From IMG/VR virus record IMGVR_UViG_3300031853_000021, positions 14,689 through 78,688 of that record: a stretch of 64,000 nucleotides of DNA; one strand, 5' to 3'. The stretch comes from a virus. Taxonomy: Duplodnaviria > Caudoviricetes. Below the pieces are notes generated by a model that ran no database searches, was not told the origin of the DNA, and worked only from the letters and a program-made list of their open reading frames with translations. The position numbers and the translations under genes are program-made. This document shows positions 897-46,790 of the stretch, one piece after another; position 1 is the first letter of the stretch, and each line of letters opens with the position of its first letter.

Positions 897-921
897 TATA
901 AAAACCTCCGTCTTCTGATGT

Positions 922-2739
922 TCAAGCGATCGACGCGCCGCGCGGGATCATCGTCTTCACCTGCCTGAATGCCGCCTTTTCGCAGACGTGCACGGTCTTC
1001 TGGTATTTCTTGCCCGCCAGCATATAGGTGACGGTCTTTCCGACCATGTTCTTTTCACCCTTCGCCGTGATCACTCCGCCCGCGATCGTCAGCTCTGTGC
1101 GTCCGCATACGTCGCCGGGGAGCAGGTTTCCATATTTCTGATATGCTTTCTGTGCGGCTTTTGTCTTCGCGTCCACTCCGATCGTCCCGATCGGCCAGGA
1201 CTTCCATCCGGTGTGCAGGATCCAGTCGGGGCTGATGGCCTTGATAAAGCTTTCCGTGTCTCCTGTATATAATCCGTGGTGGCTGGTCTTGTAGACATCG
1301 ACATGCCCGACTTTTGCAGGGTCGAATTTAGATTCTTTTTTCCCGCAGTGGTGATCGCCGCATGTCAGCATCCGGATCCCGGCGACTTCGATCAGGGTAC
1401 ACAGGGACCGCATGTTTGTAGAATCCGTGCTGCTCCCTGTCTGCTGGAAGACGACCGTCCCATGAATCTTCCCGGTGTCGAATGTGCTGCCCTGCTTCAG
1501 GACGACAACTTCCGTCCCGTACTTCTTGCAGTCGGCCAGCAGGGTCTTGTACCTGTTTTTGTATTCGCCGGCGATGGTGCTTTCAGCAGGAACATAGCAC
1601 CGTTTTATCCGCTTCGCCTTTACCAGAGCGTTCGCGTTGGACGACATATGGTCGCTGTGAGGGTGGCTGATGTACAGGTCCACGCGGTCGCAGTCTTTGA
1701 TCTCTTCCTTGATCCTGTCCATGGCGCCGGTCTTGAATGCGTCCATAATGAGGGCGCTTTTTGCGTCGTCCTTTACGATCACAAGATCCCCCTGCAGGCC
1801 GTCAATTTCTTTTGTGCTCCGGTCCTTGTCCCTGAACAGAGAAATGATCCTGCCGGATACTGACGTGCCTGTGGCCGCGGCAGGCTGCTGCAGTGCTTTG
1901 TTTACTTCCTTCTGCACTGCCGCGGGATCATAGCCGCAGAACTTAAGGAGCAGTTCCCGGATCGCGTTGGTCCCGAACTTGTCCTGAAGAACCAGCTGTG
2001 CGGCCTCCGCGTTCGTCCTTCCTTTCAGCGCGTAGATGTCGTCGATCTTATCCTGGACGGCAGTCGCCCAATTTCCGAGGCGCTTTCTCCTGTATTTTCC
2101 TTTTCCTGCATGGTTGGCGATCACATAGACGGCCAGGTCGAATACGGTCTTGTCGATATCATTCCACACCCGGTCGACTTCGTCCTGGATCTTTTCGGCG
2201 TTCTTCTTTCCGAACACCGACAGCTGCTTCATTCTCGTATCGCCCGAACTGTAGACGTTCAGAATACAGTCCGCGGCCGCGATTGCGATCTGCAGGTTTG
2301 TCATGTCGGGCATCGCCTTGTACTTCGGCCTGACGTATCCGATCACGGACCTGCCTTTGTAGCTGCGCCGTCCGCAGCCTCCGTTGTAGTTCCCGGCCAC
2401 GTCGATGTAGAAGCCGACATTTGCTTCTGTATGGTTTGGCTTTCCGCTGGATCCAAATACAAGGATATCGCCCGGAAGGATTCCATTAGTCCCGCCGTGC
2501 CAGATGCCCTTCTTCTGCGCGTTCTTTTTCAGCGTCCCGCTGATCTGCGCATATCCTCCGATCAGGTCGATCCCGCCGGCGCGATGCATGGCCGCCATCA
2601 AGGTTTCAGTGCACCATGCGTCTTTCATTGTGGCGTGATGCCCGAAGCCGTTCAGGTCTTTGATCACGTCTTCGTGTGCTGAATCGCTCCCGTCGTACTT
2701 TGTGAGTGCTTCCAAAAAATCCCATACTGTACACGCCAT
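922..2739 (-). CDS. Multidomain cell-wall hydrolase: CHAP-like domain + Cpl-7-like repeats + metallo-beta-lactamase-fold (ComEC/Pce-like) domain
   Basis: AWCTET and PNHTE (Cys/His), VIGYVRPKY; GYDPAAVQKEVN repeat; HPHSDH, GD and KTSHHG MBL motifs. Confidence 0.75.
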   Translation of the reverse strand: MACTVWDFLEALTKYDGSDSAHEDVIKDLNGFGHHATMKDAWCTETLMAAMHRAGGIDLIGGYAQISGTLKKNAQKKGIWHGGTNGILPGDILVFGSSGKPNHTEANVGFYIDVAGNYNGGCGRRSYKGRSVIGYVRPKYKAMPDMTNLQIAIAAADCILNVYSSGDTRMKQLSVFGKKNAEKIQDEVDRVWNDIDKTVFDLAVYVIANHAGKGKYRRKRLGNWATAVQDKIDDIYALKGRTNAEAAQLVLQDKFGTNAIRELLLKFCGYDPAAVQKEVNKALQQPAAATGTSVSGRIISLFRDKDRSTKEIDGLQGDLVIVKDDAKSALIMDAFKTGAMDRIKEEIKDCDRVDLYISHPHSDHMSSNANALVKAKRIKRCYVPAESTIAGEYKNRYKTLLADCKKYGTEVVVLKQGSTFDTGKIHGTVVFQQTGSSTDSTNMRSLCTLIEVAGIRMLTCGDHHCGKKESKFDPAKVGHVDVYKTSHHGLYTGDTESFIKAISPDWILHTGWKSWPIGTIGVDAKTKAAQKAYQKYGNLLPGDVCGRTELTIAGGVITAKGEKNMVGKTVTYMLAGKKYQKTVHVCEKAAFRQVKTMIPRGASIA

Positions 2740-2765
2740 CGTGTTCCCTCCGTCTGCCCTGCAGA

Positions 2766-3266
2766 TTAGTCAGCAATAAATTCCACGTGTTCCGGGCGGC
2801 CGCTCACATAGTAGCCACTTGCCGTCTTGTACATGACGCCTTCCGGCGTTGTGGCCTTCTGTGTCACCCTTCTTTCGTCGAATTTGGTGACGCCGCAGAC
2901 GGTGTCGGAAGAAAAAGACGGCGCCCTGTGCAGGCGAAGCTTTCCGTCGAACACGCGGCGAACCACGCCGGTCACGCTTTCTTCTTTGATCCCGTCCGGC
3001 TCCTGCTCCTGGACTTCCTGTTCCTCTGCAGGCTTTTCGTCGGGCGCCTCCTGCTGCTGGCCGCCTTCCTGCTCCTGTGCGGTTTCGCCGACTGCTGCCG
3101 TCTCTTCCTCCTGCTGTTCTCCCTTTGAATCCTCGACGGGTTCCGGGTAAATCTGAACAGCATCTTCGTCGTACACGCTCATGCCGTTCTTGTCCGCTGC
3201 CTTCTTTGCGCCGTCCAGTGTCTTGTATTCCTTCGCGCTTTCGAAGTCATAGCCTGTGTAGTACAT
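2766..3266 (-). CDS. Conserved lysis-module protein, putative non-catalytic cell-wall-binding protein
   Basis: Homologue at 40002-40457; KEYKTLDGAKKAAD motif, E/Q-rich linker, beta-rich C-terminus. Confidence 0.6.
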   Translation of the reverse strand: MYYTGYDFESAKEYKTLDGAKKAADKNGMSVYDEDAVQIYPEPVEDSKGEQQEEETAAVGETAQEQEGGQQQEAPDEKPAEEQEVQEQEPDGIKEESVTGVVRRVFDGKLRLHRAPSFSSDTVCGVTKFDERRVTQKATTPEGVMYKTASGYYVSGRPEHVEFIAD

Positions 3267-3298
3267 TCTTGTCCTCCTTCTTTAGTGGTGCCTGGCGG

Positions 3299-3550
3299 TC
3301 AGTTCGGCTCGTCGTACTCGCGGGCGCGGTCAGAATCTGACACGCCCTTCGTCGTCGGATCTACGACGACGCCCATGATCACCAGCACGGCGAACAGTGC
3401 CTCGATGATAGCGGTCAGCTGTGCATTGATTGTTTCGGTGTCGATCTGGAACCCGAACAGCGCCGCGACTGCCCTGATCAGTGTCAGGACCGCAGGGATG
3501 AATGCAAGCCAGAACCATTTATTTTTAATCCTTACCTTCCAGTTGATCAT
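3299..3550 (-). CDS. Phage holin (phiLC3-like)
   Basis: MINWKVRIKNKWFWLAFIP start, two hydrophobic segments, GVVVDPTTKGVSDS end. Confidence 0.85.
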   Translation of the reverse strand: MINWKVRIKNKWFWLAFIPAVLTLIRAVAALFGFQIDTETINAQLTAIIEALFAVLVIMGVVVDPTTKGVSDSDRAREYDEPN

Positions 3551-3572
3551 GATTCCTCCTGGTTTTTTTAAT

Positions 3573-3601
3573 ACGCGGAAGGCTTGCCCGGCCTCCCGCG
3601 T
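3573..3601 (-). promoter_or_regulatory. Stem-loop just upstream of the holin RBS
   Basis: ACGCGGAAGGC-7nt-GCCTCCCGCGT; the stem is conserved at 42236-42263. Confidence 0.4.
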
Positions 3602-3610
3602 CTGCCTCGT

Positions 3611-3940
3611 TTATACTGTTTTCTTTCCCGGCGCATCCGGCCGAATCTGCAGAAGTGATTCCATCCGGTCGACCCGCTTGTGCAAAGACTTCATGCTTTC
3701 TTCTGTCCTGATCGTCCGCTCGTTCACGCGCTCCATCTCCTCTTTGTGGGATTTGATGTCCTGCTTTACCTCGATCAGCGAATTCTGGATGATCTCCAGC
3801 TTTGTCAGGATTGCACTTTCCTGCTTTCCGACTTCTTCCGCTTCCTTGCGGTCGTCTTTCCCGGATACTTTATTCCCGTTGTAGATCGAAAACAAAAGCG
3901 CCAGCACAGAGATAACAACTGCGGCCCACTGTGGTGTCAT
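3611..3940 (-). CDS. Membrane-anchored coiled-coil lysis-module protein (XhlA-like)
   Basis: N-terminal hydrophobic helix, C-terminal SMKSLHKRVDRME; homologue at 42278-42607. Confidence 0.6.
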   Translation of the reverse strand: MTPQWAAVVISVLALLFSIYNGNKVSGKDDRKEAEEVGKQESAILTKLEIIQNSLIEVKQDIKSHKEEMERVNERTIRTEESMKSLHKRVDRMESLLQIRPDAPGKKTV

Positions 3941-3943
3941 TCT

Positions 3944-4195
3944 TCATGTCCTCCTGAGTTTGTGTTCTATTCTGTCCAGCTGCCTGTCCGCGTCTTCCCG
4001 CGCCCGGCGCAGGTCTTCCCGGATAGCTTCTTCCATTTTCGTCCGTTCGATCAGTTCCGCCTGTTTCCGGATGATCCGCGCCATCGTGTCTGTGACTTCG
4101 CACATCATGTCCACGACTTCCAGCAGTCCGCCGGAGCCGCCATCCCACGGCGGCGTGTCCCTTTCGCTCATGCTTTCCTGATCCTTTCCTGTCAC
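3944..4195 (-). CDS. Conserved hypothetical phage protein
   Basis: Homologue at 42612-42863 (PPWDGGSGGLLEVVDMMC). Confidence 0.7.
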   Translation of the reverse strand: MTGKDQESMSERDTPPWDGGSGGLLEVVDMMCEVTDTMARIIRKQAELIERTKMEEAIREDLRRAREDADRQLDRIEHKLRRT

Positions 4196-4332
4196 TCTTC
4201 CTCTTCGACGATCAGCTCTTCCATGCCGCTTTCGATCAGGATCTCGCGGACCTGGTCTTTAAGAAGGCGCGGAACCTGCGCGAATGTCTTCTTTCCCAGA
4301 ATGATCTTCTGTGCCCATAACATGGCCATCAT
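4192..4332 (-). CDS. Small CD1375/XkdX-like protein
   Basis: MMAMLWAQKIILGKKTFAQVPRLLKDQV, GGAGG RBS; homologue at 42860-42997. Confidence 0.7.
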   Translation of the reverse strand: MMAMLWAQKIILGKKTFAQVPRLLKDQVREILIESGMEELIVEEEE

Positions 4333-4379
4333 CGTGTCGACCTCCTTTCCATAGAATAATTGCATTAACGCCCGCCAGA

Positions 4380-4763
4380 TCATTCATACACCACTTCAGA
4401 CATTTCCATGATGCACTCTTCCAGCATGGCGATCTGCTCTTTCTGCTCGCTGACGATCTTCGTCAGCTGCGCCCGCGTCATCGCTTCTTCTTCGGGCGCT
4501 GGCGGATCCGGATCCGGATGCGTGTCGTCCATTCCGTACTGCCACCACTTCGCGAAGTCCTCTTCGATCTCCTGCGCCGTCGCGGCCTTGCCGTCAGGCA
4601 TGAAGAACTGTACTTCATCGAACCGGTACATCGTCCGATCCGGCTGATCCTCCTGTTTGTACGGCTGGATATTGTCCGCAAGACGGACGAATATCTTCCC
4701 GCCCGGCAGATGTTCCAGTGTCACCTTCTGCGGCTTCTCTGCCGCGTCGCTCTTGTAATACAT
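4380..4763 (-). CDS. Hypothetical protein, position typical of an XkdW-like/tail-fibre chaperone
   Basis: MYYKSDAAE start after AAAGGAG; 127 aa, near-identical homologue at 43057-43440; precedes the CD1375-like gene. Confidence 0.6.
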   Translation of the reverse strand: MYYKSDAAEKPQKVTLEHLPGGKIFVRLADNIQPYKQEDQPDRTMYRFDEVQFFMPDGKAATAQEIEEDFAKWWQYGMDDTHPDPDPPAPEEEAMTRAQLTKIVSEQKEQIAMLEECIMEMSEVVYE

Positions 4764-4782
4764 GCAGCCACTCCTTTCTTTT

Positions 4783-6006
4783 CTACTGGTCCAGCCGCTG
4801 ATAAAATGCATTTATTTCCCTGGCGGTCCGCATCAGGTCATCTATGTGATACTTTTCAATCAGGCCGTCTGAATCCGTTTGAATGACATAGCTGTTATAT
4901 GAGATAATCTTCCGCGCTCTATCTCGCCGCAGCGTGCCTGTTTCTGTCAGCTCCCTGTATCCTCTAATGAATTGTCTTCTTGCCCTCCGGAAGACGCGCC
5001 TGCGGATCGTGATGTGCGTCCTGCTTATCCTGTATCCCGCCATGTCCAGCATCGGAACGCCGCGCTGCGCTTTTCCCGGAAGGCTTCGCCGTCGCTTTTC
5101 TTCTTCGATTGTCAGGATCTTGCTGATTCCGGATGTCGTCTTCAGTTCAATCCCCATTTTCTCCCGGAAGTATTTATCCAGATGCTTCGTCGCCCGTTTC
5201 ATCCCTTTTATGGATCTGGACATCAGCGCGAAGTCATCCATGAAGGTGACGGTGCGGATCACGTACGGGATCTTCTTCCCGCGCCGCGTGGTTCCCTGTG
5301 CATACAGGTCGCGGATCGCGTAGGACATCGCGAAATTGAACAGCCAGGCATCGATGTACCCGCCGATGATCAGATGCCCGTCCGGCGCGATCCGTCCCAG
5401 ATATTCCAGCAGGACGATCGCGGCCTTCGCTTTCGGGATCTCCTTCTTCAGGATGTCCACGCAGACCTGATACTTCAGCGTCGCGTATGCGTGGACGACG
5501 TCCGTCTTCTGGATGTACCTGACGCCGACCGTCTCCTTCAGAAGGTATCTGTGCGCCTGATCCTTCAGCAGCGTCTGACCGCGTCCCGGAATGCTGGCGT
5601 GCTGCGTCGGCAGAAGCCGCGCGTTGATCAGCGGTTCGATCATCAGCTTTTCGATGTGTCCGATCAGCTGATGCAGGATGGACAACAGTGCGATGTCCCG
5701 TGTCTTCCCTGTCATGCCGTCCGGACGCTGGCGGATCGTCGGCGGCTCCATGTCGTCCGGTTCGATCCCGTATTCGACCAGATCTTCCACGACGCCGTAC
5801 AGCATCAGCCCGATCGAATGGATCGCTTCTTCCTTCACACGTCTGGATCCGGACAGATCGTCGATCAGGATTTCCGTCCTTCCGATTCCGGCGTACTTCT
5901 CGATGAATACCAGAATGTCGCGGTGCTTCCATTTGCTTTTGAAACATTCTTCGACTGCTTCTTCGCATAGCTTCAGGGACAGCTTCCTGTATCTCTTCGT
6001 GTGCAT
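4783..6006 (-). CDS. DGR reverse transcriptase, left copy (407 aa)
   Basis: RT motifs GKTRDI, QHASIPGRG, KTDV, IIGGYIDAW, TFMDDF, LDMAGY; adjacent to the TR/VR pair. Confidence 0.92.
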   Translation of the reverse strand: MHTKRYRKLSLKLCEEAVEECFKSKWKHRDILVFIEKYAGIGRTEILIDDLSGSRRVKEEAIHSIGLMLYGVVEDLVEYGIEPDDMEPPTIRQRPDGMTGKTRDIALLSILHQLIGHIEKLMIEPLINARLLPTQHASIPGRGQTLLKDQAHRYLLKETVGVRYIQKTDVVHAYATLKYQVCVDILKKEIPKAKAAIVLLEYLGRIAPDGHLIIGGYIDAWLFNFAMSYAIRDLYAQGTTRRGKKIPYVIRTVTFMDDFALMSRSIKGMKRATKHLDKYFREKMGIELKTTSGISKILTIEEEKRRRSLPGKAQRGVPMLDMAGYRISRTHITIRRRVFRRARRQFIRGYRELTETGTLRRDRARKIISYNSYVIQTDSDGLIEKYHIDDLMRTAREINAFYQRLDQ

Positions 6007-6197
6007 AATTCTTTATTTTGTGAAGCGGCGTTCGGTTGCGGTCTGACCTTAAAGCAGATCCGGCCTTGTTACTACTTGCCGCACGCGCAGCCCACAGCTG
6101 CGTGTTCCCCTTTCGAAGATTCCGGTTTTACTGATTTTTGCTTGCGCATGGATATGCAGACGCACATCAGCAGACTTTCGCCTGCCTTCATGAAAAT

Positions 6198-6341
6198 AAG
6201 TCGCGGACGGCTGTTCCAGTTCGCGTTACCGGGCGTGTTGTTGCCATTCTCGCACGCCAGCCCGGCATTCGCCCCGTTGTTCAAGTTCGCGAACCGCCAC
6301 GGGCAGCGAACCCCGGCGGAGCCGGTACCGTTGAAGGCCGA
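6198..6341 (-). ncRNA. DGR template repeat (TR), copy 1
   Basis: 144-bp match to 6443-6586; 11 AAC/AAT codons and 27 adenines on the sense strand; lies outside the target gene. Confidence 0.95.
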
Positions 6342-6379
6342 TCCCGCGCCTGCATACCCTGTTTGTTTATAGTTACATC

Positions 6380-6415
6380 AGGGGACTTCCCCCTCTGGAC
6401 GTCTTACGACGTCCA
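6380..6415 (-). promoter_or_regulatory. Tandem hairpins downstream of VR (DGR target-recognition element)
   Basis: TGGACGTC-GTAA-GACGTCCA (8-bp stem, 4-nt loop holding the TAA stop) followed by AGGGG-AAGT-CCCCT. Confidence 0.75.
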
Positions 6416-8113
6416 TTCACCCCGCTTTTTACCCGCTCCACAAAGCCGCGGACGGCTGCGCCAGCTCGCGTTACCGGGCGCGTTGTGGCCATACTCGCAC
6501 GCCAGCCCGGCAAGCGCCCCGCTGTCCAAGGACGCGAACCGCCACCGGCAGCGAACCCCGGCGGAGCCGGGACCGCTGAAGGCCGACTTGAAGTAGGTCG
6601 TCGCTGATCCGCCGACCTCTTCCGGGAACAGGACGCCCTTCTTTGTCTTCATGAAGGACTTCACATAGTTCCAGCCGGATTTCATTCCTTCGTACAGCAG
6701 GCCAGTGTCTTCGTAGTTCGATGTCACGGATCCCGCCAGATTCTGACTGTCGCGGCATTCGTAGATCGAATAATCCCAATCAGACACAGCGTTCGCCGTG
6801 ACGGTATAAAGCGGATCCAGGCCGACCGCATATGCGCCGTCCAGGACTTCCACGCCAGCCACACGAAGCGGCGACGTTCCATCCGTCAGCCCGTGCGGGC
6901 ATCCGTCCTTCCTTCCCGGAAGAAGTTCTGTCGCGCCTGAATGCCACGGCATCGTCGAAATGTATGTCGTCGCTGTCGTGGTGAATGCGCTTTCCGTCTC
7001 TATGCCGACCGCTGCCAGTTCGTCGCCGTCGATCGTGACGGTTTCGATGGAACTGATCTTGACCAGATCCAGAATGTTCCGCATGTGTGCCTGTCCTCTG
7101 TCCTTGTTCGTGGACGATCCCATGTCGCCGATTGACACGGTCGAACCGACGATCAGGTTCGCGGCCTGCGTCGTCGACAGGATCACGCGCTTCACATTTT
7201 CTTCTGCCTTCGCTACCTGGTACTGTCTGTCGTAGCTGATGCAGCCGTTCGCGATGTTGCTGTTTTCCAGATCGAAGTGCCGCAGCTGCCACATCCGCAG
7301 GATCCATCTTGTATCGCAGTCATTCCACAGTCCTTCATAGATCGTCATCTTCCGCGCCGCTGTGATGCCTGCGGTCGCGCTGGCGAAGTTGTACGGCCTG
7401 ATGCCTGCGCCGGATGTCAGTGCGCCGCTGCTGTTCAGTCCGCCGGGGAATGAAGGATGCCATGTCAGCGCCCGCTTCGTTCCGTCCGGTGCGACATCCC
7501 CGGCGTCCGGATAGAATCCCGCGCCTTTGGTCGTCCTGAAGCTGATGAAATTGAATGAACCGTCGTTCCATTCCTTGATCCACAATGCCAGCGCGAACGT
7601 CCAGACGGGCGCGTCTTCGCCTGTGATGTCGAAGCCGTCTTCGCCTTCGAAGTATGTGATGTTCATGGTTCCATCTTCCAGGGACATCGCATTCGCCCGG
7701 ATGTACCATGTCATCGGATCTTCGTCCGCCCAATCTTCGACGGCGGCATCGGATGCCGTGCACAGCTGCGCGGCGCTCTTTCCTTCCAGATCGTCCAGCG
7801 GCGTCATCGCCGTGTTTCCGGATACTGCTGCATCATAGCTTCGCAGCGTGTACGCCTTGCTGTTCCACGCCTGCGCCGCTGCTTTTGCGAATCTTTCAAG
7901 GATCTTATATTTGCTTGTCTCTCCTGCTGCCGCTGCGCGCGGATAGAATTCCCAGAAGACGCGCGTGGTGTTCGTTCCGTCCAGGACGCTTTTGCACGCC
8001 GCGTCAAGGACAGCCGCATCAGATGACCCGCCGTTCAGCGCGATCGATTCCAGCGCGGCGGCGATCCGTTCGTGCTGTGTCCACGAAGGGAAAATCAGAT
8101 CCATGTCTGCCAT
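6404..8113 (-). CDS. DGR target protein, putative receptor-binding tail protein with C-terminal CLec-fold variable region
   Basis: VR encodes SAFSGPGSAGVRCRWRFASLDSGALAGLACEYGHNAPGNASWRSRPRL at the C-terminus; follows baseplate genes. Confidence 0.88.
   Translation of the reverse strand: MADMDLIFPSWTQHERIAAALESIALNGGSSDAAVLDAACKSVLDGTNTTRVFWEFYPRAAAAGETSKYKILERFAKAAAQAWNSKAYTLRSYDAAVSGNTAMTPLDDLEGKSAAQLCTASDAAVEDWADEDPMTWYIRANAMSLEDGTMNITYFEGEDGFDITGEDAPVWTFALALWIKEWNDGSFNFISFRTTKGAGFYPDAGDVAPDGTKRALTWHPSFPGGLNSSGALTSGAGIRPYNFASATAGITAARKMTIYEGLWNDCDTRWILRMWQLRHFDLENSNIANGCISYDRQYQVAKAEENVKRVILSTTQAANLIVGSTVSIGDMGSSTNKDRGQAHMRNILDLVKISSIETVTIDGDELAAVGIETESAFTTTATTYISTMPWHSGATELLPGRKDGCPHGLTDGTSPLRVAGVEVLDGAYAVGLDPLYTVTANAVSDWDYSIYECRDSQNLAGSVTSNYEDTGLLYEGMKSGWNYVKSFMKTKKGVLFPEEVGGSATTYFKSAFSGPGSAGVRCRWRFASLDSGALAGLACEYGHNAPGNASWRSRPRLCGAGKKRGEWTS
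6443..6586 (-). repeat. DGR variable repeat (VR), copy 1
   Basis: 16 mismatches to TR, 15 at TR adenines. Confidence 0.95.
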
Positions 8114-8128
8114 TTTCTTGTTCCTCCT

Positions 8129-8935
8129 TTATGCTGTGATCTTTGTCAGTGACATGTGCGGGACGCCCCGCTGCGCGTAGATCGCATACGCATATTTCAC
8201 ATCGTTGTCGCTGTCGTAGATGTACGACGCTTCATTGATCTGGCTTGCGATCTCCACGGCTTCGTTCGCCTTATTCAGGACGATCGTCGTGTTCTCCTGC
8301 CGCGTGTTCTCCGCTGTGACGCGTCCGTTCTCTGCGGTCACGCGGGCGTTCTCTGCTTCGACGCGGGCGTTCTCTGCGGTTACGCGGGCGTTCTCTGCGG
8401 TCACGCGGGCGTTCTCCGCATTTGCGCGGCTTGTCTCTGCGCTGACGCGCCTGTTCTCTGCCGTCTTTCTGGCGTTCTCTGCGGTCACGCGGGCGGCTTC
8501 CGCTTCCGCGTATGCCTTCATGGTCGCGTCGAACAGTGACATTTCGTCGCCGGATATGATGGCGTCTTCATCCTTGACGCACGGTTCGATCTCGATTTCG
8601 AACGTGCAGGACGTGATGACTTCGGTCATGTCCCCGGACTTCACTTCGATTTCTGCCAGTGCTGTCCCCGCTGCCGCCAGCGTCTGCGACGTCAGTTCCA
8701 TCGTGACGACAGACCCGGAAAACGTGCACGGCGAATATGCCCGCTTCAGATCCGGCTTCTTGATGTAGGCCGTGACGTTCGATCCGGGCGGGATCTCATA
8801 TTCTTCGCCCTGATTCAGCAGCTGGATTTCGACGTACCGCGTCGCCCTGTCGTGCTGCTTCGCCGATACCTGATACTGCTTCGTAGATCCTGACATCTCG
8901 ATCTTCAGTCTTTTGATGACCCTGTTCAGGCTCAT
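8129..8935 (-). CDS. BppU-like baseplate upper protein with heptad coiled coil
   Basis: AKQHDRATRYVEIQL...YIKKPD...AGTALAEIEV; ARVTAEN heptads. Confidence 0.75.
   Translation of the reverse strand: MSLNRVIKRLKIEMSGSTKQYQVSAKQHDRATRYVEIQLLNQGEEYEIPPGSNVTAYIKKPDLKRAYSPCTFSGSVVTMELTSQTLAAAGTALAEIEVKSGDMTEVITSCTFEIEIEPCVKDEDAIISGDEMSLFDATMKAYAEAEAARVTAENARKTAENRRVSAETSRANAENARVTAENARVTAENARVEAENARVTAENGRVTAENTRQENTTIVLNKANEAVEIASQINEASYIYDSDNDVKYAYAIYAQRGVPHMSLTKITA
8306..8494. repeat. Nine degenerate 21-bp tandem repeats encoding (A/R)RVTAEN heptads
   Basis: GTTCTCTGCGGTCACGCGGGC units on the plus strand; same array at +38677. Confidence 0.9.
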
Positions 8936-8951
8936 GTCTGCATCCTCCTTT

Positions 8952-10460
8952 CTACAGTCCTAATTTTTCTATGATCTGCGCGATCGTGACTGTCTCCCCG
9001 TTCGGCTTCTCAAATTCGCACGTCCCCCGGAAGATCGCATTGAATGCGAAGTCCGCATAGTTTTCGCGCGTCGCTTTCGACCCGAAGGCCACGCCGCGCC
9101 CTCCATGCAGGAAGTGCATCAGATAGACCGCCGTCGACACGAAGTCGATCACCGTCACGGTGTTGAACTGGTCTTTCAGGACATACTTCACATCGTAGGA
9201 AAATTCCGTGTCCAGATCTCCGCCGCAGACTGCCGTCTTCCCTTCGCCCGGACTGATCGTCTTCGGTGTTCCGTATGTCCAGTTGCTTGTCAGCTTGTAG
9301 GCCACGGTCAGCGTCAGGCTGTTCTTCCCGTTGCACGTGCTGTATGTCGTGTCGGTCATCGCCAAAAAATAGACGCCTTCGTTCTCGATGGATCCGTCAG
9401 ATCCGCAGCGCATCGAATCGACCGACAGCGTCGGCGGATCATATTCGACGACCGTGATCCGGGCGGACTTCTCTGCCGTCCTGCCCCGCTGATCCTTGAC
9501 CGTCACCGTGATCGTCTTCACCCCGTAGTCTTCGAAGATCTTCGACGTCGGAAGTGACGTCGGCGTGCCCGTGTATGTCTTGTCGTCCACTTCCATCGCG
9601 ACAGATACGATCGCGGATCCGTATGACGGCGTCACGCTCACGGCGGACAGGCCGACGTTCGACTGTTCTTCCACGAACATGTTCCACGATGCCGGGACGC
9701 GCCCGGCCTTGTCTGCGACCGTGACCGAATTGATCACCGGCACGCAGTCGTCCGGAACTGTCACTTTGATCTGTTTCGTGATAGTCTGATATACCTGTGT
9801 CCCGAAGATGCTTTCGATCTTCAGTGTCATCCACCCGAACGTCGAATCCGGAAGTTCTTCGTTCCACAGCTTCGGGATCTTGTAGCTGTTCGTGATCCGC
9901 GTCGCCTTCGCAGCCAGTTTCTTCGTGTTGCTGTATGTCTTATTCTTTAGCGTCCACGTGAACCTGTATGTCGCATCCGTCGTCAGTTTAATCGATGCGG
10001 AACTGTCGCCGCTTTCTACGTTCAGCGGGACTGATTCGTTTCCCGTGATCTCGATGTCTGACGCGCCCGGATCCCATTCGTAATATGTCAGGCGTCCCAG
10101 ATCATAGAATGACCGAACGCATTCAGACGGATCCGAAACAGGATTCGCTCCGTACTTTATCGTGAAGAATGGTTTGTTGATTACCAGCTTTGTCCCGATG
10201 TTCAGCGTGGCCTTCTGGACATATGTGACCCCCAGCACAGTCTTCTTTGCTTTGATCGTCCATCTGTACTGTTTCCCGTCGATGATTGTTACTGTAGGGA
10301 AGTCATCCGGCCCTACTGCCAGCGCCCACATATCATCGGGGACGTTCAGCGCGATCGATGTGATCGTCGTTGTGTCGCCTGATACGCTCCCCGACGCTGT
10401 CGCCGCTGCCTGAAATACCGAATCGGCTGTGATCGGAACGCTGAATGTTTTATTTGCCAT
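8952..10460 (-). CDS. Minor tail structural protein (DUF859-like)
   Basis: Beta-rich; TVTVKDQRGR...ITVVEYDPPTL...RC motif; GGRGVAFG; lies between tail spike and BppU genes. Confidence 0.65.
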   Translation of the reverse strand: MANKTFSVPITADSVFQAAATASGSVSGDTTTITSIALNVPDDMWALAVGPDDFPTVTIIDGKQYRWTIKAKKTVLGVTYVQKATLNIGTKLVINKPFFTIKYGANPVSDPSECVRSFYDLGRLTYYEWDPGASDIEITGNESVPLNVESGDSSASIKLTTDATYRFTWTLKNKTYSNTKKLAAKATRITNSYKIPKLWNEELPDSTFGWMTLKIESIFGTQVYQTITKQIKVTVPDDCVPVINSVTVADKAGRVPASWNMFVEEQSNVGLSAVSVTPSYGSAIVSVAMEVDDKTYTGTPTSLPTSKIFEDYGVKTITVTVKDQRGRTAEKSARITVVEYDPPTLSVDSMRCGSDGSIENEGVYFLAMTDTTYSTCNGKNSLTLTVAYKLTSNWTYGTPKTISPGEGKTAVCGGDLDTEFSYDVKYVLKDQFNTVTVIDFVSTAVYLMHFLHGGRGVAFGSKATRENYADFAFNAIFRGTCEFEKPNGETVTIAQIIEKLGL

Positions 10461-12189
10461 CTGCTGCCACCTCCATCCGGAAGACGCCGCTGTCGTCGAT
10501 CAGCTGCTGATATACAGCCGGTCGTGCCGCTGCCTTCCTGATCTTCGTTTGCAGGCGCAGCGTGTTCGCCGTCGCCGGTTCTTCTTCCTGCGCTTCCCTC
10601 CATTTGACACCCATCCCGTACTGTGTGGATATGAAGTCGAAGTATCCGCCGTCCTCTGCCGCTCCGACAGACCATCGCCTGACAGCTTCGACGTTCAGGA
10701 TGTGCAGCTTGTCGTACTGGATGTATGCGACCGGCGATCCGTCCTGTCTGAATTCCAGCCTTGTGTTCGACAGCATCGTGGAAAACGGCATCACGCCGCC
10801 GTCCTGCTTCTTGCCGATTTCAAGGCCGTCGTCAGTGTAATGGAAGTATGTTTCGTTCTCCTGTTTGAACGATTCCAGATCTTCGCCCTGCGCTGTGACC
10901 GTCTCTTCCATCGACCGGATCGAAATGTTCAAGTCGATGGATGTCTGTTCGATCATGGTCTGATATTCGTTCGTCATCTGCTCCACGGTCTTGTTGTTGG
11001 CATCGTCCGCGTATAGCTTCGCGGCTTCCTCTGCCGCCGATGCCATATCCCGCGATTCTGTCCGGATCGCCTGGACGGATGTCGCGATCTTTTCTTCCGA
11101 AGATGTGATCGCCGCCTGGACTTCTTCGGTCGTCCAGTACCCGCCCCGCAGGATCCGCTTCGTCCTCGATTCAGACACGGACACGGCATCCGACAGTGTC
11201 TTTTCCTGCGTCTCCGTCTGGATCTGTTCGAACGTCTTCACGACGCTGGACAGTTCGCAAGTGTTCTTCTGCGGATCCTTCGGATATTCCGTCATCTTCA
11301 CGATCCGCTGCTTCGTCCGCGTGTTCTCCGTCTTCGATACGATCCACACTGTATCGCCGATGTCGTAATCCAGAAGGCCGTATTCTTCAGACTGTGCCGC
11401 AAGATCTGCGACGTCGGCAGTGTAGGCCGTGTACGGTCTGGACGCTGTTTCCAGCTTCGCCCGCGCGTCCTCGATCAGATTTTCCGTGATAGTGTACCGT
11501 TCATCTTTCCAGATCTTCGGCACGATCTTGTCTGTGTACTGATGATTGTCGATGTACGGCACGCCGATCATGATTTCCGGCGTGATGCCATCCTTGCCGA
11601 TCGGATAGATCCGCGTGTAGAAGTCGTACGTGTTCGACTTCACTGTCAGCTTCCGAAGGTTCAGCCCCTCCATGAAGTAGGCGCCGCGATCCGTTCCTAT
11701 GTGCTCATATAGATGGATCACCTTCCGGATGCTGTCTATGCTGCATTCGCACATGTACGTCTTCAGGACGTCCTGAAGGACATCCCACGCCGTGCACGTG
11801 TCTTCTATGTCGACCGTCCGGCGCTTTGTGATCGTGCACGTGCCGACCGTCCATCCGGTTCCCTCGAATGCGAATTCAAGGCAAGCGCGCGCCGTCTGTG
11901 TCTCCGATGCGAATCCATATGTGAATTCCTGCTGTTCCAGTTCCTCGATGTTCAGCTTCGCGACGTACCTGTTCTTCGTCGCCCCTGTCTCGATCTCCTT
12001 CAGGACGTATTCGTCTTCCTTCGTCCGGATGTAGTTTTCCGCTGCCAGTGCCGCGATCGCCGCGCCGTTCTTCGGATATGAAAACGACAGTTCCTTGTCC
12101 CCGGACGACAGCGTCTTTTCGATCTTCAGATCGTCCATCATGTCGATCGCCGCGATCCGCTTGTGCAGCGCGTCGTATATCTGGATCAT
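10450..12189 (-). CDS. Tail spike / prophage tail endopeptidase-family (Tal-like) protein
   Basis: FYTRIYPIGKDG, DIGDTV, follows Dit; homologue at 49076-50839. Confidence 0.75.
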   Translation of the reverse strand: MIQIYDALHKRIAAIDMMDDLKIEKTLSSGDKELSFSYPKNGAAIAALAAENYIRTKEDEYVLKEIETGATKNRYVAKLNIEELEQQEFTYGFASETQTARACLEFAFEGTGWTVGTCTITKRRTVDIEDTCTAWDVLQDVLKTYMCECSIDSIRKVIHLYEHIGTDRGAYFMEGLNLRKLTVKSNTYDFYTRIYPIGKDGITPEIMIGVPYIDNHQYTDKIVPKIWKDERYTITENLIEDARAKLETASRPYTAYTADVADLAAQSEEYGLLDYDIGDTVWIVSKTENTRTKQRIVKMTEYPKDPQKNTCELSSVVKTFEQIQTETQEKTLSDAVSVSESRTKRILRGGYWTTEEVQAAITSSEEKIATSVQAIRTESRDMASAAEEAAKLYADDANNKTVEQMTNEYQTMIEQTSIDLNISIRSMEETVTAQGEDLESFKQENETYFHYTDDGLEIGKKQDGGVMPFSTMLSNTRLEFRQDGSPVAYIQYDKLHILNVEAVRRWSVGAAEDGGYFDFISTQYGMGVKWREAQEEEPATANTLRLQTKIRKAAARPAVYQQLIDDSGVFRMEVAADGK

Positions 12190-12202: not shown

Positions 12203-12901
12203 TTACATCCACATCGGCGTGTACGTCAGCATCACCTTCGCAGATCCGGATGAAAATGTCAGATCGTTTTCGCCCGCTGCCAGGCGTGGGAACTGCCAGA
12301 ACGACACCTGATCGAAGGCGTTCTTCCCGTCGATCGTTGCCTTCCCGCTCCTGCCGTCGATGATCAGCGTCTTCCCTGCTGCCAGCGTCTCGACGATGTA
12401 CGCTTCGTCGTTTAATGTGATCACGTAGTCCGTCAGCTGCTGCTTCGCCGTGACCGCCACAGCACACGGCGCGTCCTTGCTGCTTTCCACGAAGATCTGC
12501 CCGGACGTCTTCCCGTCGAATGTGATTTCCAGATCGTCATCGAAGAAATACCCGTCGATCGACAGTTCCAGAATCTTCTTCGACAGGTCCAGCGTCTTCG
12601 TCAGACTGTCGTCTGTCAGGTATGCTTTGTATTTGCCTTTGTATCCCTTGATCTCTTCCAGGACGGCAGACTGGCGGAACTGCATCATGAATCTTGATAC
12701 AGTCCGCTGAAGTTCTGCCCGGTTCCTTGCGCGGAAGTAGATCGTCAGCTTCAGCGTTCCCAGCGGGATGTCTGTTTCGTACTCCGTCGGAAGCAGCGCC
12801 CGCTGGATCATCTCCTTCTGGACGCTGATCTTCGGCGGCTGTTCCTCGACCGTCAGCAGCTTCGCGCCGTATTCCCTGACGTCCACGCCGTTTACGATCA
12901 T
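12203..12901 (-). CDS. Distal tail protein (Dit)
   Basis: Directly after TMP; C-terminal FPRLAAGENDLTF...YTPMWM. Confidence 0.75.
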   Translation of the reverse strand: MIVNGVDVREYGAKLLTVEEQPPKISVQKEMIQRALLPTEYETDIPLGTLKLTIYFRARNRAELQRTVSRFMMQFRQSAVLEEIKGYKGKYKAYLTDDSLTKTLDLSKKILELSIDGYFFDDDLEITFDGKTSGQIFVESSKDAPCAVAVTAKQQLTDYVITLNDEAYIVETLAAGKTLIIDGRSGKATIDGKNAFDQVSFWQFPRLAAGENDLTFSSGSAKVMLTYTPMWM

Positions 12902-39940: not shown

Positions 39941-39944
39941 TAAT

Positions 39945-39994
39945 GATGCACCTAATTCAGCGTTGCCCGAAGGTGACGCCGAATTAGGTACATC
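39945..39994. other. 50-bp imperfect palindrome: attP-like site and/or terminator
   Basis: 23-bp arms (4 transition mismatches) around CGAA, 4 bp after the integrase stop; followed by T6. Confidence 0.55.
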
Positions 39995-40001
39995 TTTTTT
40001 C

Positions 40002-40457: not shown

Positions 40458-40485
40458 TCGATCATCTCCTTCCCGTTCTTCCTGA

Positions 40486-41943: not shown

Positions 41944-41961
41944 GCCTGCTTCCCTCCTTCC

Positions 41962-42213
41962 TTAGTTCGGTTCGTCGTAAAGCATCGCCCGGTCAGAATC
42001 TGACACGCCCTTCGTTGTGGGATCCACGGTCACGCCCAGGATGACCAGCACAGCGAAGACTGCTTCGACGATCTGGATCAGCTGCGTGCCGACCGCTTCC
42101 GTCTCGATCTGGAAGCCGAACAGCGCCGCCACAGCTTTGATCAGCGTCAGAACGGCGGGGATGATCGCCAGCCAGAACACTTTATTCTTGATTCTCACTT
42201 TCCAGTTGATCAT
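41962..42213 (-). CDS. Phage holin (phiLC3-like)
   Basis: Homologue of 3299-3550. Confidence 0.85.
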   Translation of the reverse strand: MINWKVRIKNKVFWLAIIPAVLTLIKAVAALFGFQIETEAVGTQLIQIVEAVFAVLVILGVTVDPTTKGVSDSDRAMLYDEPN

Positions 42214-42277
42214 GTTGTTTTCTCCTTCCTGGCATACGGAAGGACGCCTTCACGCCCTTCCGCGCTCGATTCTTTGT

Positions 42278-42607: not shown

Positions 42608-42611
42608 TCCG

Positions 42612-43056: not shown

Positions 43057-43440
43057 TCATTCGTATACCACTTCCGACATCTCCAAGATGCAATCTTCCA
43101 TCATGGCGATCTGCTCTTTCTGTTCGCTGACGATCTTCGTCAGCTGCGCCCGTGTCATCGCTTCTTCTTCAGGCGCTGGCGGATCCGGATCCGGATGTAC
43201 ATCATCCACCCCGTACTGCCACCATGTCGCGAAGTCCTCTTCGATCTCCTGCGCCGTCGCGGCCTTGCCGTCCGGCATGAAGAACTGGACTTCGTCAAAA
43301 CGGTACATCGTCCGATCCGGCTGATCCTCCTGTTTGTACGGCTGGATATTGTCCGCAAGACGGACGAAGATCTTCCCGCCCGGCAGATGTTCCAGCGTCA
43401 CCTTCTGCGGCATCTCTGCCGCGTCGCTCTTGTAATACAT
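43057..43440 (-). CDS. Hypothetical protein, XkdW-like/tail-fibre chaperone position
   Basis: Homologue of 4380-4763. Confidence 0.6.
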   Translation of the reverse strand: MYYKSDAAEMPQKVTLEHLPGGKIFVRLADNIQPYKQEDQPDRTMYRFDEVQFFMPDGKAATAQEIEEDFATWWQYGVDDVHPDPDPPAPEEEAMTRAQLTKIVSEQKEQIAMMEDCILEMSEVVYE

Positions 43441-44683
43441 GCAGCCACTCCTTTCTTTTCTGCTGATCCAGCCGCTGATAGAGTCCCTGAACCTGTTCAG
43501 CCATCTTGATCAGTTCTTCCACGTGGTACTTTTCCTTCAGCCCGTGCGCGTCGGTCTGCTGCACGTAGCTGTTGTACGATATGATTTTCTGTGCACGATC
43601 CCGCCGCAGTGTTCCCGTTTTCTTCAGCTCTCTGTATCCTCTGATCAGCTGCCTTCGTGCCCTCCGGAAGACGCGCCTGCGGATCGTGATGTGCGTCCTG
43701 CTGATCCTGTATCCCGCCATGTCCAGCATCGGGACGCCACGCTGCGCTTTTCCCGGAAGGCTCCGTCGTCGCTTCTCTTCTTCGATCGTCAGTATCTTAC
43801 TGATTCCGGATGTCGTCTTCAGTTCGATTCCCATTTCCTTCCGGAAGTATTTGTCCAGGCGCTTCGTCGCCCGCTTCAGTCCTTTGACGGATCCAGACAT
43901 CAGCGCGAAGTCGTCCATGAAGGTGACGACGCGGATCACGTACGGGATCTTCTTCCCGCGCCGTGTGGTTCCCTGTGCGTACAGGTCGCGGATCGCGTAG
44001 GACATCGCGAAATTGAACAGCCAGGCGTCGATGTACCCGCCGATGATCAGATGCCCGTCCGGTGCGATCCGTCCCAGATATTCCAGCAGGGCGATCGCGG
44101 CCTTCGCCTTCGGGATCTCCTTCTTCAGGATGTCCACGCAGACCTGATACTTCAGCGTCGCGTATGCGTGGACGACGTCCGTCTTCTGGATGTACCTGAC
44201 GCCGACCGTCTCCTTCAGAAGGTATCTGTGCGCCTGATCCTTCAGCAGCGTCTGACCGCGTCCCGGAATGCTGGCGTGCTGCGTCGGCAGAAGCCGCGCG
44301 TTGATCAGCGGTTCGATCATCAGCTTTTCGATGTGTCCGATCAGCTGATGCAGGATGGACAACAGTGCGATGTCCCGTGTCTTCCCTGTCATGCCGTCCG
44401 GACGCTGGCGGATCGTCGGCGGCTCCATGTCGTCCGGTTCGATCCCGTATTCGACCAGATCTTCCACGACGCCGTACAGCATCAGCCCGATCGAATGGAT
44501 CGCTTCTTCCTTCACACGTCTGGATCCGGACAGATCGTCGATCAGGATTTCCGTCCTTCCGATTCCGGCGTACTTCTCGATGAATACCAGAATGTCGCGG
44601 TGCTTCCATTTGCTTTTGAAACATTCTTCGACTGCTTCTTCGCATAGCTTCAGGGACAGCTTCCTGTATCTCTTCGTGTGCAT
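43295..44683 (-). CDS. DGR reverse transcriptase, right copy (462 aa, 55-aa read-through extension)
   Basis: Same motifs as the left copy; TAG replaced by CAG at 43460-43462. Confidence 0.88.
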   Translation of the reverse strand: MHTKRYRKLSLKLCEEAVEECFKSKWKHRDILVFIEKYAGIGRTEILIDDLSGSRRVKEEAIHSIGLMLYGVVEDLVEYGIEPDDMEPPTIRQRPDGMTGKTRDIALLSILHQLIGHIEKLMIEPLINARLLPTQHASIPGRGQTLLKDQAHRYLLKETVGVRYIQKTDVVHAYATLKYQVCVDILKKEIPKAKAAIALLEYLGRIAPDGHLIIGGYIDAWLFNFAMSYAIRDLYAQGTTRRGKKIPYVIRVVTFMDDFALMSGSVKGLKRATKRLDKYFRKEMGIELKTTSGISKILTIEEEKRRRSLPGKAQRGVPMLDMAGYRISRTHITIRRRVFRRARRQLIRGYRELKKTGTLRRDRAQKIISYNSYVQQTDAHGLKEKYHVEELIKMAEQVQGLYQRLDQQKRKEWLHVLQERRGRDAAEGDAGTSAGREDLRPSCGQYPAVQTGGSAGSDDVPF

Positions 44684-44874: not shown

Positions 44875-45018
44875 AAGTCGCGGACGGCTGTTCCAGTTCG
44901 CGTTACCGGGCGTGTTGTTGCCATTCTCGCACGCCAGCCCGGCATTCGCCCCGTTGTTCAAGTTCGCGAACCGCCACGGGCAGCGAACCCCGGCGGAGCC
45001 GGTACCGTTGAAGGCCGA
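44875..45018 (-). ncRNA. DGR template repeat, copy 2
   Basis: Identical to 6198-6341 by base-wise comparison. Confidence 0.95.
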
Positions 45019-45056: not shown

Positions 45057-45092
45057 AGGGGACTTCCCCCTCTGGACGTCTTACGACGTCCA
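45057..45092 (-). promoter_or_regulatory. Tandem hairpins downstream of VR, copy 2
   Basis: Identical to 6380-6415. Confidence 0.75.
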
Positions 45093-46790
45093 TTCACCCC
45101 GCTTTTTACCCGCTCCACAAAGCCGCGGACGGCTGCGCCAGCTCGCGTTACCGGGCGCGTTGTGGCCATACTCGCACGCCAGCCCGGCAAGCGCCCCGCT
45201 GTCCAAGGACGCGAACCGCCACCGGCAGCGAACCCCGGCGGAGCCGGGACCGCTGAAGGCCGACTTGAAGTAGGTCGTCGCTGATCCGCCGACCTCTTCC
45301 GGGAACAGGACGCCCTTCTTTGTCTTCATGAAGGACTTCACATAGTTCCAGCCGGATTTCATTCCTTCGTACAGCAGGCCAGTGTCTTCGTAGTTCGATG
45401 TCACGGATCCCGCCAGATTCTGACTGTCGCGGCATTCGTAGATCGAATAATCCCAATCAGACACAGCGTTCGCCGTGACGGTATAAAGCGGATCCAGGCC
45501 GACCGCATATGCGCCGTCCAGGACTTCCACGCCAGCCACACGAAGCGGCGACGTTCCATCCGTCAGCCCGTGCGGGCATCCGTCCTTCCTTCCCGGAAGA
45601 AGTTCTGTCGCGCCTGAATGCCACGGCATCGTCGAAATGTATGTCGTCGCTGTCGTGGTGAATGCGCTTTCCGTCTCTATGCCGACCGCTGCCAGTTCGT
45701 CGCCGTCGATCGTGACGGTTTCGATGGAACTGATCTTGACCAGATCCAGAATGTTCCGCATGTGTGCCTGTCCTCTGTCCTTGTTCGTGGACGATCCCAT
45801 GTCGCCGATTGACACGGTCGAACCGACGATCAGGTTCGCGGCCTGCGTCGTCGACAGGATCACGCGCTTCACATTTTCTTCTGCCTTCGCTACCTGGTAC
45901 TGTCTGTCGTAGCTGATGCAGCCGTTCGCGATGTTGCTGTTTTCCAGATCGAAGTGCCGCAGCTGCCACATCCGCAGGATCCATCTTGTATCGCAGTCAT
46001 TCCACAGTCCTTCATAGATCGTCATCTTCCGCGCCGCTGTGATGCCTGCGGTCGCGCTGGCGAAGTTGTACGGCCTGATGCCTGCGCCGGATGTCAGTGC
46101 GCCGCTGCTGTTCAGTCCGCCGGGGAATGAAGGATGCCATGTCAGCGCCCGCTTCGTTCCGTCCGGTGCGACATCCCCGGCGTCCGGATAGAATCCCGCG
46201 CCTTTGGTCGTCCTGAAGCTGATGAAATTGAATGAACCGTCGTTCCATTCCTTGATCCACAATGCCAGCGCGAACGTCCAGACGGGCGCGTCTTCGCCTG
46301 TGATGTCGAAGCCGTCTTCGCCTTCGAAGTATGTGATGTTCATGGTTCCATCTTCCAGGGACATCGCATTCGCCCGGATGTACCATGTCATCGGATCTTC
46401 GTCCGCCCAATCTTCGACGGCGGCATCGGATGCCGTGCACAGCTGCGCGGCGCTCTTTCCTTCCAGATCGTCCAGCGGCGTCATCGCCGTGTTTCCGGAT
46501 ACTGCTGCATCATAGCTTCGCAGCGTGTACGCCTTGCTGTTCCACGCCTGCGCCGCTGCTTTTGCGAATCTTTCAAGGATCTTATATTTGCTTGTCTCTC
46601 CTGCTGCCGCTGCGCGCGGATAGAATTCCCAGAAGACGCGCGTGGTGTTCGTTCCGTCCAGGACGCTTTTGCACGCCGCGTCAAGGACAGCCGCATCAGA
46701 TGACCCGCCGTTCAGCGCGATCGATTCCAGCGCGGCGGCGATCCGTTCGTGCTGTGTCCACGAAGGGAAAATCAGATCCATGTCTGCCAT
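45081..46790 (-). CDS. DGR target protein, copy 2 (identical 569 aa)
   Basis: Translation identical to 6404-8113. Confidence 0.88.
   Translation of the reverse strand: MADMDLIFPSWTQHERIAAALESIALNGGSSDAAVLDAACKSVLDGTNTTRVFWEFYPRAAAAGETSKYKILERFAKAAAQAWNSKAYTLRSYDAAVSGNTAMTPLDDLEGKSAAQLCTASDAAVEDWADEDPMTWYIRANAMSLEDGTMNITYFEGEDGFDITGEDAPVWTFALALWIKEWNDGSFNFISFRTTKGAGFYPDAGDVAPDGTKRALTWHPSFPGGLNSSGALTSGAGIRPYNFASATAGITAARKMTIYEGLWNDCDTRWILRMWQLRHFDLENSNIANGCISYDRQYQVAKAEENVKRVILSTTQAANLIVGSTVSIGDMGSSTNKDRGQAHMRNILDLVKISSIETVTIDGDELAAVGIETESAFTTTATTYISTMPWHSGATELLPGRKDGCPHGLTDGTSPLRVAGVEVLDGAYAVGLDPLYTVTANAVSDWDYSIYECRDSQNLAGSVTSNYEDTGLLYEGMKSGWNYVKSFMKTKKGVLFPEEVGGSATTYFKSAFSGPGSAGVRCRWRFASLDSGALAGLACEYGHNAPGNASWRSRPRLCGAGKKRGEWTS
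45120..45263 (-). repeat. DGR variable repeat, copy 2
   Basis: Identical to 6443-6586. Confidence 0.95.

Follow-up and report, generated by a model that had tools for sequence, protein, structure and literature searches.

The 64,000-nucleotide stretch analysed here (the window; positions 14,689 to 78,688 of IMG/VR record IMGVR_UViG_3300031853_000021, Caudoviricetes) carries, between positions 4,783 and 8,113, a group of genes and repeats which is very probably the diversity-generating retroelement (DGR) of a temperate siphovirus-like phage of gut or rumen Clostridia. The cassette comprises a target gene with a variable repeat (VR) at its 3' end, a template repeat (TR), a spacer and a reverse transcriptase (RT) gene, and is followed by the gene of a small acidic protein. 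All of its genes lie on the minus strand, and TR and VR were compared on this sense (minus) strand. Its parts, including an end resembling the initiation of mutagenic homing (IMH) element, are the following:

6404..8113, minus strand: target (variable protein) gene, 569 amino acids (aa), an open reading frame (ORF) with matches to phrog_17147 and phrog_5302, 'tail protein'
6443..6586, minus strand: VR, in frame, codons 510-557 of the 569-codon target
6443..6456, minus strand: IMH-like 3' end of the VR, the G/C-only run GCCGTCCGCGGC and then TT
6415..6430, minus strand: VR-specific conserved block AAAAAGCGGGGTGAAT, in which GGGGTGAAT is invariant in 15 loci
6396..6415, minus strand: hairpin 1, 3' of the VR, 8-bp stem and GTAA loop, with the TAA stop of the target within the loop
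6380..6394, minus strand: hairpin 2 (AGGGG...CCCCT), kept in relatives, with no T-run 3' of the stem
6198..6341, minus strand: TR, 27 A and 11 AAY codons, the same sequence in six sister contigs
6007..6197, minus strand: TR-RT spacer, 191 nt, candidate conserved structured RNA
4783..6006, minus strand: RT copy A, 407 aa, motif 4 IIGGYIDAW, catalytic FMDD, phrog_1423, ending with TAG at 4783-4785
4380..4763, minus strand: small acidic protein, 127 aa, isoelectric point (pI) 4.4, conserved beside this DGR family and without a Pfam or NCBIfam family

We read the locus as a DGR because of the adenine specificity of the TR/VR pair, the C-type-lectin fold of the target, the bRT-like fold of the RT, the IMH-like end, the covarying hairpin, and the hypervariation of the VR against an invariant TR. 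A repeat search of the window returned a direct repeat of 144 nt (6198-6341 and 6443-6586) with 89% identity, and a base-by-base count gave 16 mismatches, 15 of them at TR adenines, which the VR reads seven times as G, five times as C and three times as T. Given that A occupies 27 of the 144 TR positions, at least 15 of 16 mismatches are expected at A with p = 1.6e-10. Nearly all TR adenines (26 of 27) stand at codon position 1 or 2. The single mismatch off adenine is a C to G at index 40 (Pro to Arg), a change peculiar to this record, the other sampled members of the target cluster having Pro. The G/C-only run GCCGTCCGCG(A/G)C includes index 140, where the TR has A and the window VR has G, as do all five scorable related VRs; because G is found in every scorable VR, this position looks like a fixed IMH/IMH*-type difference marking the 3' limit of transfer, so that 26 mutable adenines remain of the 27. 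For these we computed a protein-level ceiling of about 2.2e15 variants, among which stop codons are unreachable.

Most of this had been described in an initial annotation made from the sequence, and our recount agrees with it exactly for the repeat coordinates, the 144 bp, the 16 mismatches with 15 at adenines, and the 11 AAY codons and 27 A of the TR. The flank strings that it quoted are correct (after the common CTT, the VR continues with TGTGGAGCG and the TR with ATTTTCATG), the GC-rich element that it placed before divergent IMH/IMH* ends corresponds to the G/C-only run and the distinct TR and VR flanks, and the repeat does sit at the C-terminus of a tail-module protein. Its ceiling of 4^27 counted the adenines properly and is refined here to the 26 mutable ones and the protein-level figure given above.

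The same signature recurs in relatives. Homologs of the RT amounted to 359 matches in gut and rumen metagenomes, and they were also found in genomes of Lachnospiraceae, Oscillospiraceae and other Clostridia, including relatives at 69% identity in the cultured isolates Hominifimenecus microfluidus CLA-AA-H215 and Fusicatenibacter faecihominis CLA-AA-H277. Of the RT-seeded genome loci, 19 had sequence upstream, and in 18 of these, with RT identity as low as 39%, we saw the target-TR-RT layout, with the TR about 190-290 nt before the RT start and a VR-to-TR distance of about 90-215 nt in 16 of the 18 (about 580 nt in loci L012 and L028). Over these 18 loci, 280 of 289 TR/VR mismatches fall at TR adenines. 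Closer still, the TR of the window recurs with all 144 nt unchanged in six IMG/VR contigs of other samples. Five of these align without a shift; there each VR differs from the TR at 11-17 positions, 74 of 74 differences are at adenines, and every VR is distinct; the sixth contig (L108) was left unscored, as it has an in-frame 3-nt indel in the VR, giving a VR-TR offset of 242 instead of 245.

Variation in the protein follows the same rule. Among 12 sampled members of the 394-member target cluster at 90% identity, the VR, with its 48 residues only 8% of the length, holds 66% of the pairwise differences. A TR adenine falls at position 1 or 2 in 15 VR codons, and 14 of these are variable, with up to nine different residues, compared with five of the 33 other VR codons and 25 of the 521 columns outside (Fisher p 4.5e-16). 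A second target cluster of 8,019 members, 72% identical, varies in the same pattern. Judged from these sequences, the lineage is demonstrably active in nature.

The 3' end of the VR and the sequence after it contain what would be expected of a directional cue in a DGR, namely the G/C-only run with its fixed A/G difference, an invariant block found at the VR only, and a covarying hairpin, the function of each being read from sequence. In relatives the order is constant, the invariant GGGGTGAAT coming first and then a hairpin with a GNRA-like loop, and the block at 6415..6430 additionally codes for the conserved KKRGEW tail of the target protein. Hairpin 1 has a DNA fold z of -4.6, and its stem sequence differs among the 15 loci, with seven of the eight pairs preserved through double compensatory changes. 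In the TR-RT spacer, a comparative fold over 12 loci brought out helices as well as conserved sequence blocks, and 14 of the 19 pairs that it predicted show compensatory changes; a single-sequence RNA fold of TR plus spacer was no better than shuffles (z -1.0), so that the comparative fold alone is informative, and no Rfam family matched between window positions 4000 and 9000. By analogy, the spacer fits a structured template RNA, the counterpart of the Sp region of Bordetella phage BPP-1, and resembles the TR-Sp template RNA of that phage (entry titles of 8ub7).

A further group of loci (L138-L142, L145, L131 and L177) has a target homolog, a VR-like end, an IMH-like block and both hairpins, with neither TR nor RT. 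When L138 is set against its close relative L137, exactly the TR-RT segment is missing, and the VR, the IMH-like end and both hairpins are retained. By their sequence, loci of this type look like natural DGR-loss variants.

The reverse transcriptase is of DGR type by its predicted fold and closest to the Bordetella phage bRT, with weak support at the level of sequence. Against RVT_1 the RT scored 27.8 bits, under the Pfam cut-off; a PDB search with the single sequence returned nothing usable, and one with the RT profile reached bRT alone, at E 0.34. An AlphaFold2 model was made of RT copy B, the intact 462-aa copy from a second phage in the same record (see below), with a predicted local distance difference test score (pLDDT) of 86.8. 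In VIA-align comparisons, residues 1-392 of this model align to 320 of the 328 residues of bRT (8ub7_A) with Z 28.7 and a root-mean-square deviation (rmsd) of 2.7; Foldseek gave E 1.8e-14 and a TM score of 0.80 normalised to bRT. The best non-DGR RT, G2L4, reached Z 23.0, i.e., 5.7 below bRT, and group II intron RTs reached about 21.5. We also considered a group II intron RT or maturase and rejected it, since TIGR04416 gave 23.5 bits where its cut-off is 300, Rfam found no intron between 4000 and 9000, and bRT is structurally the closer match.

The usual DGR signature in motif 4, (I/L/V)GxxxSQ, which is a diagnostic and not a functional definition, is replaced by IIGGYIDAW. D219, A220 and W221 of this motif are invariant in the family alignment of 12 sequences; in an alignment of 25 sequences W221 is invariant, and D219 and A220 are nearly so. 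The I-G of the usual signature is retained. A more distant relative (G218, 29% identity, RT of 352 aa) has IGSFLSQW at the aligned site and an adenine-specific TR/VR pair of its own, so that this clade derives from SQ-bearing DGR RTs, with DA having replaced SQ. The RT, with a pI of 9.8, is about 80-130 aa longer than bRT, at 407-464 aa.

As regards the target, no family was found for it in Pfam or NCBIfam, and a PDB sequence search with it as a single sequence gave nothing usable. The AlphaFold2 model built on 70 diverse homologs has a mean pLDDT of 94.8, and in Foldseek the sole significant PDB matches of this model were chains of TaqVP, a DGR variable protein from Thermus aquaticus (E 1.5e-6, probability 1.00). 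With VIA-align, model residues 137-560 superimpose on TaqVP (5vf4) with Z 21.0 and an rmsd of 3.2 A over 267 residues, and Z was 9.4 for PvdO, a protein of the formylglycine-generating enzyme (FGE) fold, and 8.9-9.2 for three Mtd variants of BPP-1 (1yu0, 1yu2 and 1yu3). On the strength of these structural matches to TaqVP, PvdO and Mtd, the target is, according to its model, a variable protein of the C-type-lectin (C-Lec)/FGE fold with the VR at its C-terminal end, like known DGR targets. A look for such a fold with AlphaFold, as the initial annotation had proposed, has thus ended in finding it, at Z 21.0 to TaqVP and about 9 to Mtd.

The genes upstream place the target in a baseplate module, with the following members assigned by Pfam:

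12203..12901, minus strand: Dit-like gene, tail module
10450..12189, minus strand: Tal/Prophage_tail gene, tail module
8952..10460, minus strand: DUF859-like gene, tail module
8129..8935, minus strand: BppU_N-like gene, tail module

On the minus strand the order is Dit, Tal, DUF859-like, BppU_N-like, target, TR, spacer, RT, small acidic protein, holin-like and endolysin genes, and the position of the target, next after BppU in the baseplate module, is the site of the receptor-binding protein in siphovirus modules. This position together with the predicted fold would point to tropism switching. Within the cassette there is no minus-strand promoter-like or terminator-like site, and hence co-transcription with the tail operon would be the simplest reading.

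Taken as a process, the cassette target(VR)-TR-spacer-RT would most likely be transcribed from the minus strand together with the late tail operon, and the RT would copy the TR and the structured spacer RNA into cDNA, placing random nucleotides opposite template adenines, as the mismatch pattern suggests. The cDNA would then replace the VR up to the G/C-rich IMH-like boundary, the VR being marked as the recipient, by analogy with BPP-1, through the VR-only conserved block and the GNRA-type hairpin. In this manner, 15 codons (11 of them AAY in the TR) would be rewritten on the C-type-lectin-fold tip of a protein in the receptor-binding position of the baseplate module. The presumable purpose is to follow changing host surface receptors with up to about 2e15 stop-free variants.

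The record of 78,688 bp is a tandem of two related phage genomes, each about 39 kb long (65-76% identity between 1-11577 and 39919-52745, and 83-85% between 17989-39926 and 56652-78684, in record positions), and the second phage carries its own cassette at these window positions:

45081..46790, minus strand: target copy B; its VR B (45120-45263) has the sequence of VR A
44875..45018, minus strand: TR copy B, identical to TR A
43295..44683, minus strand: RT copy B, 462 aa, intact, modelled with AlphaFold2 (pLDDT 86.8)
43057..43440, minus strand: small acidic protein copy B, 94% identity to copy A

A block of 3,258 bp has zero differences between the two (5432-8689 and 44109-47366), and its flanks are 82% and 76% identical. 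The block takes in RT codons 1-191, the spacer, the TR, the VR, the complete target and a portion of the BppU-like gene. Either the receptor-binding/DGR module was exchanged recently, or the assembly followed a path through a repeat that both phages share. As VR A and VR B both lie inside the block, their identity says nothing about activity. Outside the block, RT A has a TAG at codon 408, where copy B reads CAG and the aligned homologs have Q; the frame stays open for 54 codons past this TAG, overlapping the gene of the small acidic protein, and RT A stops 55 codons before the stop of RT B. A recoding of TAG to Q was considered and rejected, since TAG ends intact genes such as 8952..10460, long ORFs are unfragmented, and copy B has CAG; with TAG being an ordinary stop elsewhere, the change in RT A is nonsense. 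The part lost lies beyond the bRT-aligned residues 1-392 and consists of half of the last helix and a tail predicted to be disordered (residues 428-462), and natural members of the RT family end as early as 416-422 aa. Judged from the model, RT A is probably functional, and RT B, intact and 38.7 kb away with the same TR and VR, could in any case serve both VRs.

Several observations speak against the DGR reading or temper it: the RVT_1 score below the Pfam cut-off, with the PDB profile search reaching bRT only at E 0.34; a motif 4 without the SQ signature; one TR/VR mismatch off adenine (C to G, Pro to Arg); no Avd found in the PF05635 search; an RT A that ends at a TAG 55 codons before the copy B stop; and a VR A equal to VR B in a 100%-identical block, so that the record bears no sign of recent diversification. 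One alternative takes the repeat for an ordinary duplication or a gene-conversion tract whose adenine bias arose by chance or composition. That idea can call on the bare existence of a repeat and nothing further, and it is refuted by the adenine statistics of the window pair (p 1.6e-10), of the related loci (280 of 289) and of the sister contigs (74 of 74 changes, with an invariant TR), besides the DGR-type RT adjoining the repeat; we give it practically no chance. The more serious alternative concerns copy A itself, which might be a frozen relic, its RT inactivated by the nonsense codon and its VR merely inherited, with only the relatives active. The TAG for CAG at codon 408, the identity of VR A and VR B, the non-adenine mismatch (suggesting ordinary mutation since the last retrohoming) and the precise loss of TR-RT with VR and hairpins kept in the L138 group would all suit such a relic. 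Nevertheless, the 407-aa protein retains the whole bRT-aligned region (1-392), residues 428-462 are predicted to be disordered, natural RTs of the family go down to 416-422 aa (352 aa in G218), TAG being an ordinary stop elsewhere in the window leaves no need for recoding as an explanation, and an intact RT B with identical TR, spacer and VR flanks could act in trans. We hold a relic to be rather improbable, and copy A would by its sequence features be active like its lineage.

A separate question concerns the small acidic protein, whose ribosome-binding site (AAAGGAG) lies just past the stop of RT A, inside the RT 3' end. Its family (100-150 aa, pI 4.0-4.8, two C-terminal types) is found near the DGR RTs of several Clostridia-phage lineages, the loci being window 4380-4763 and 43057-43440, L012, L028, L035, L036, L048 and L101. 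Conceivably retrohoming in this DGR family depends on it as an accessory factor other than Avd. All 16 RT-seeded loci that have sequence there contain it; it travels with the cassette and, in L012 and L028, occupies the classical avd position between target and TR. A profile of the protein matched four times in 399 Clostridia genomes, each time beside an RT, in one case a canonical IGNYTSQ RT with an unrelated target N-terminus. In 64 of 65 testable viral loci seeded by the C-terminal domain an RT lies just upstream; these RTs are of other lineages, one of which has an Avd-like ORF as well. There is also a precedent in CH1 of Wu et al., a small acidic accessory candidate in Avd-less DGRs (PMC5758913). 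On the other hand, in at least three target-seeded lineages (L138-142 with L145, L131, and L177) the small gene directly follows the target homolog with no RT or TR, although the case of L177 is weaker, its sequence running on for about 1.1 kb after the small gene so that an RT further on is possible. L138, which lacks TR-RT relative to L137, keeps the VR, the IMH-like end and the hairpins; L101 has both the small protein and an Avd-like ORF (PF05635, E 9e-4, below the cut-off); and its acidity (pI 4.0-4.8) is unlike the nucleic-acid-binding Avd. Its named-family neighbours in the ESM Atlas are small phage proteins (YomQ_N, DUF2977), with scores below 0.9, a lead only. Complex prediction of RT B with the small protein gave 0.65, 0.01 and 0.28 in three runs and was not used as evidence either way. 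As the small gene stays with the target in L138 and similar loci where TR-RT is absent, we downgrade the replacement of Avd to an unlikely option, and lean towards a partner of the variable tail protein.

At one locus (L040:3954-5321) target-like sequence is fused within a single ORF to the C-terminal two-thirds of the small protein, an arrangement that looks like the outcome of a deletion spanning the target end, the TR, the RT and the start of the small gene.

To our knowledge, Avd is essential in the only well-studied DGR system. A PF05635 search of the whole 78.7-kb record gave no match at E <=1, with control genomes positive, although Avd is poorly conserved and a very divergent one elsewhere could escape; between VR and TR, the gap of 101 nt leaves no room for avd, and the sole small ORF without an assignment is the acidic one (pI 4.4). 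With no Avd encoded, the RT probably works with RNA alone or with an unrecognised factor. We put forward as a tentative proposal, on balance doubtful, that this clade, abundant in Clostridia phages (IGGY[IL]DAW, FMDD, longer N- and C-termini, no Avd), needs no protein partner for adenine-specific mutagenic retrohoming, or else uses the small acidic neighbour, which would then be an accessory protein of a new kind. If true, it would represent a minimal, Avd-independent DGR, and the SQ dipeptide would be dispensable for adenine mutagenesis. In another DGR lineage (L101:2808-3158 and L102) a 116-aa Avd-like ORF, the one matching PF05635 at E 9e-4, lies between target and TR, and this lineage also has the small protein 3' of its RT.

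In mechanism and parts, the cassette is a standard DGR, with departures in the DA-for-SQ motif, the longer RT and the lack of a recognised accessory gene. The label 'BPP-1-type' given to it initially therefore holds for the adenine-specific TR/VR retrohoming signature and not for the architecture, there being no avd and an RT without SQ. Like BPP-1 (mtd-avd-TR-brt), it shows adenine-specific transfer into a VR at the 3' end of a C-type-lectin receptor-binding gene. Also shared are an RT with bRT as its nearest structural match, a G/C-rich IMH-like boundary at which TR and VR differ in a fixed manner, a hairpin 3' of the VR whose loop has 4 nt, and a structured spacer separating the TR from the RT gene; Guo and colleagues are said to have described in 2011 the hairpin after the VR in BPP-1. 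Unlike BPP-1, it has no avd, its RT has 407-464 aa against 328 aa and no significant sequence similarity to bRT (E 0.34), and its TR and VR 3' flanks are unrelated, whereas IMH and IMH* of BPP-1 are near-identical. The corresponding residues of bRT are IGNLTSQ in motif 4 and YMDD at the catalytic site, where this family has IGGY(I/L)DAW and FMDD. Accordingly the cassette, lacking an avd gene, differs from the avd-TR-RT order of BPP-1-type DGRs, Architecture B of Wu et al., and resembles by architecture their Architecture A1 (target, TR-RT) and the Avd-less 'Lineage 3' (PMC5758913). Lineage 3A came from Bacteroides and the present family is in Clostridia. In the same survey, a TR-RT core without a recognised accessory gene was found in 29% of 372 DGRs, and Avd-independent retrohoming was proposed (Wu et al. 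2018, PMC5758913). TaqVP (5vf4), to which the target is structurally closest, shares only 15% identity with it, and the target adds a beta-barrel insert (about residues 293-390), an N-terminal helical part and a phage baseplate context. In ecology, and with its C-Lec-fold tail target, the window DGR is similar to the gut-phage DGRs of Roux et al. 2021, whose clades 1, 4 and 6 are phage DGRs of gut Firmicutes/Bacteroidetes with C-Lec tail targets and constant activity in metagenomes (PMC8144416).

Since DGRs are common in gut phages, the element itself is no surprise; its value is that of a clean natural example, with an invariant TR across samples, VRs differing only at adenines, and confident models of both target and RT. 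The cultured Lachnospiraceae with 69%-identical relatives make Avd-independent retrohoming and the role of the non-SQ motif testable at the bench. Detection by Pfam RVT_1 or by the SQ signature would tend to miss this clade, even though one target cluster at 90% identity has 8,019 members. Moreover, the identical cassette in two phages otherwise 76-82% identical would imply, if it is not an assembly path through the shared repeat, that the module is exchanged as a unit.

Two further features of the window lie outside the cassette. In the lysis module, positions 922-2739 encode a 605-aa protein with a CW_7 cell-wall-binding repeat and weak matches to the metallo-beta-lactamase fold; its counterpart in the second phage (40486-41943, 485 aa) gave no blastn match to it and is largely unrelated. 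Within the BppU_N-like gene (8129..8935), positions 8301-8519 contain eight tandem units of 21 nt (seven codons), probably a heptad coiled-coil stalk.

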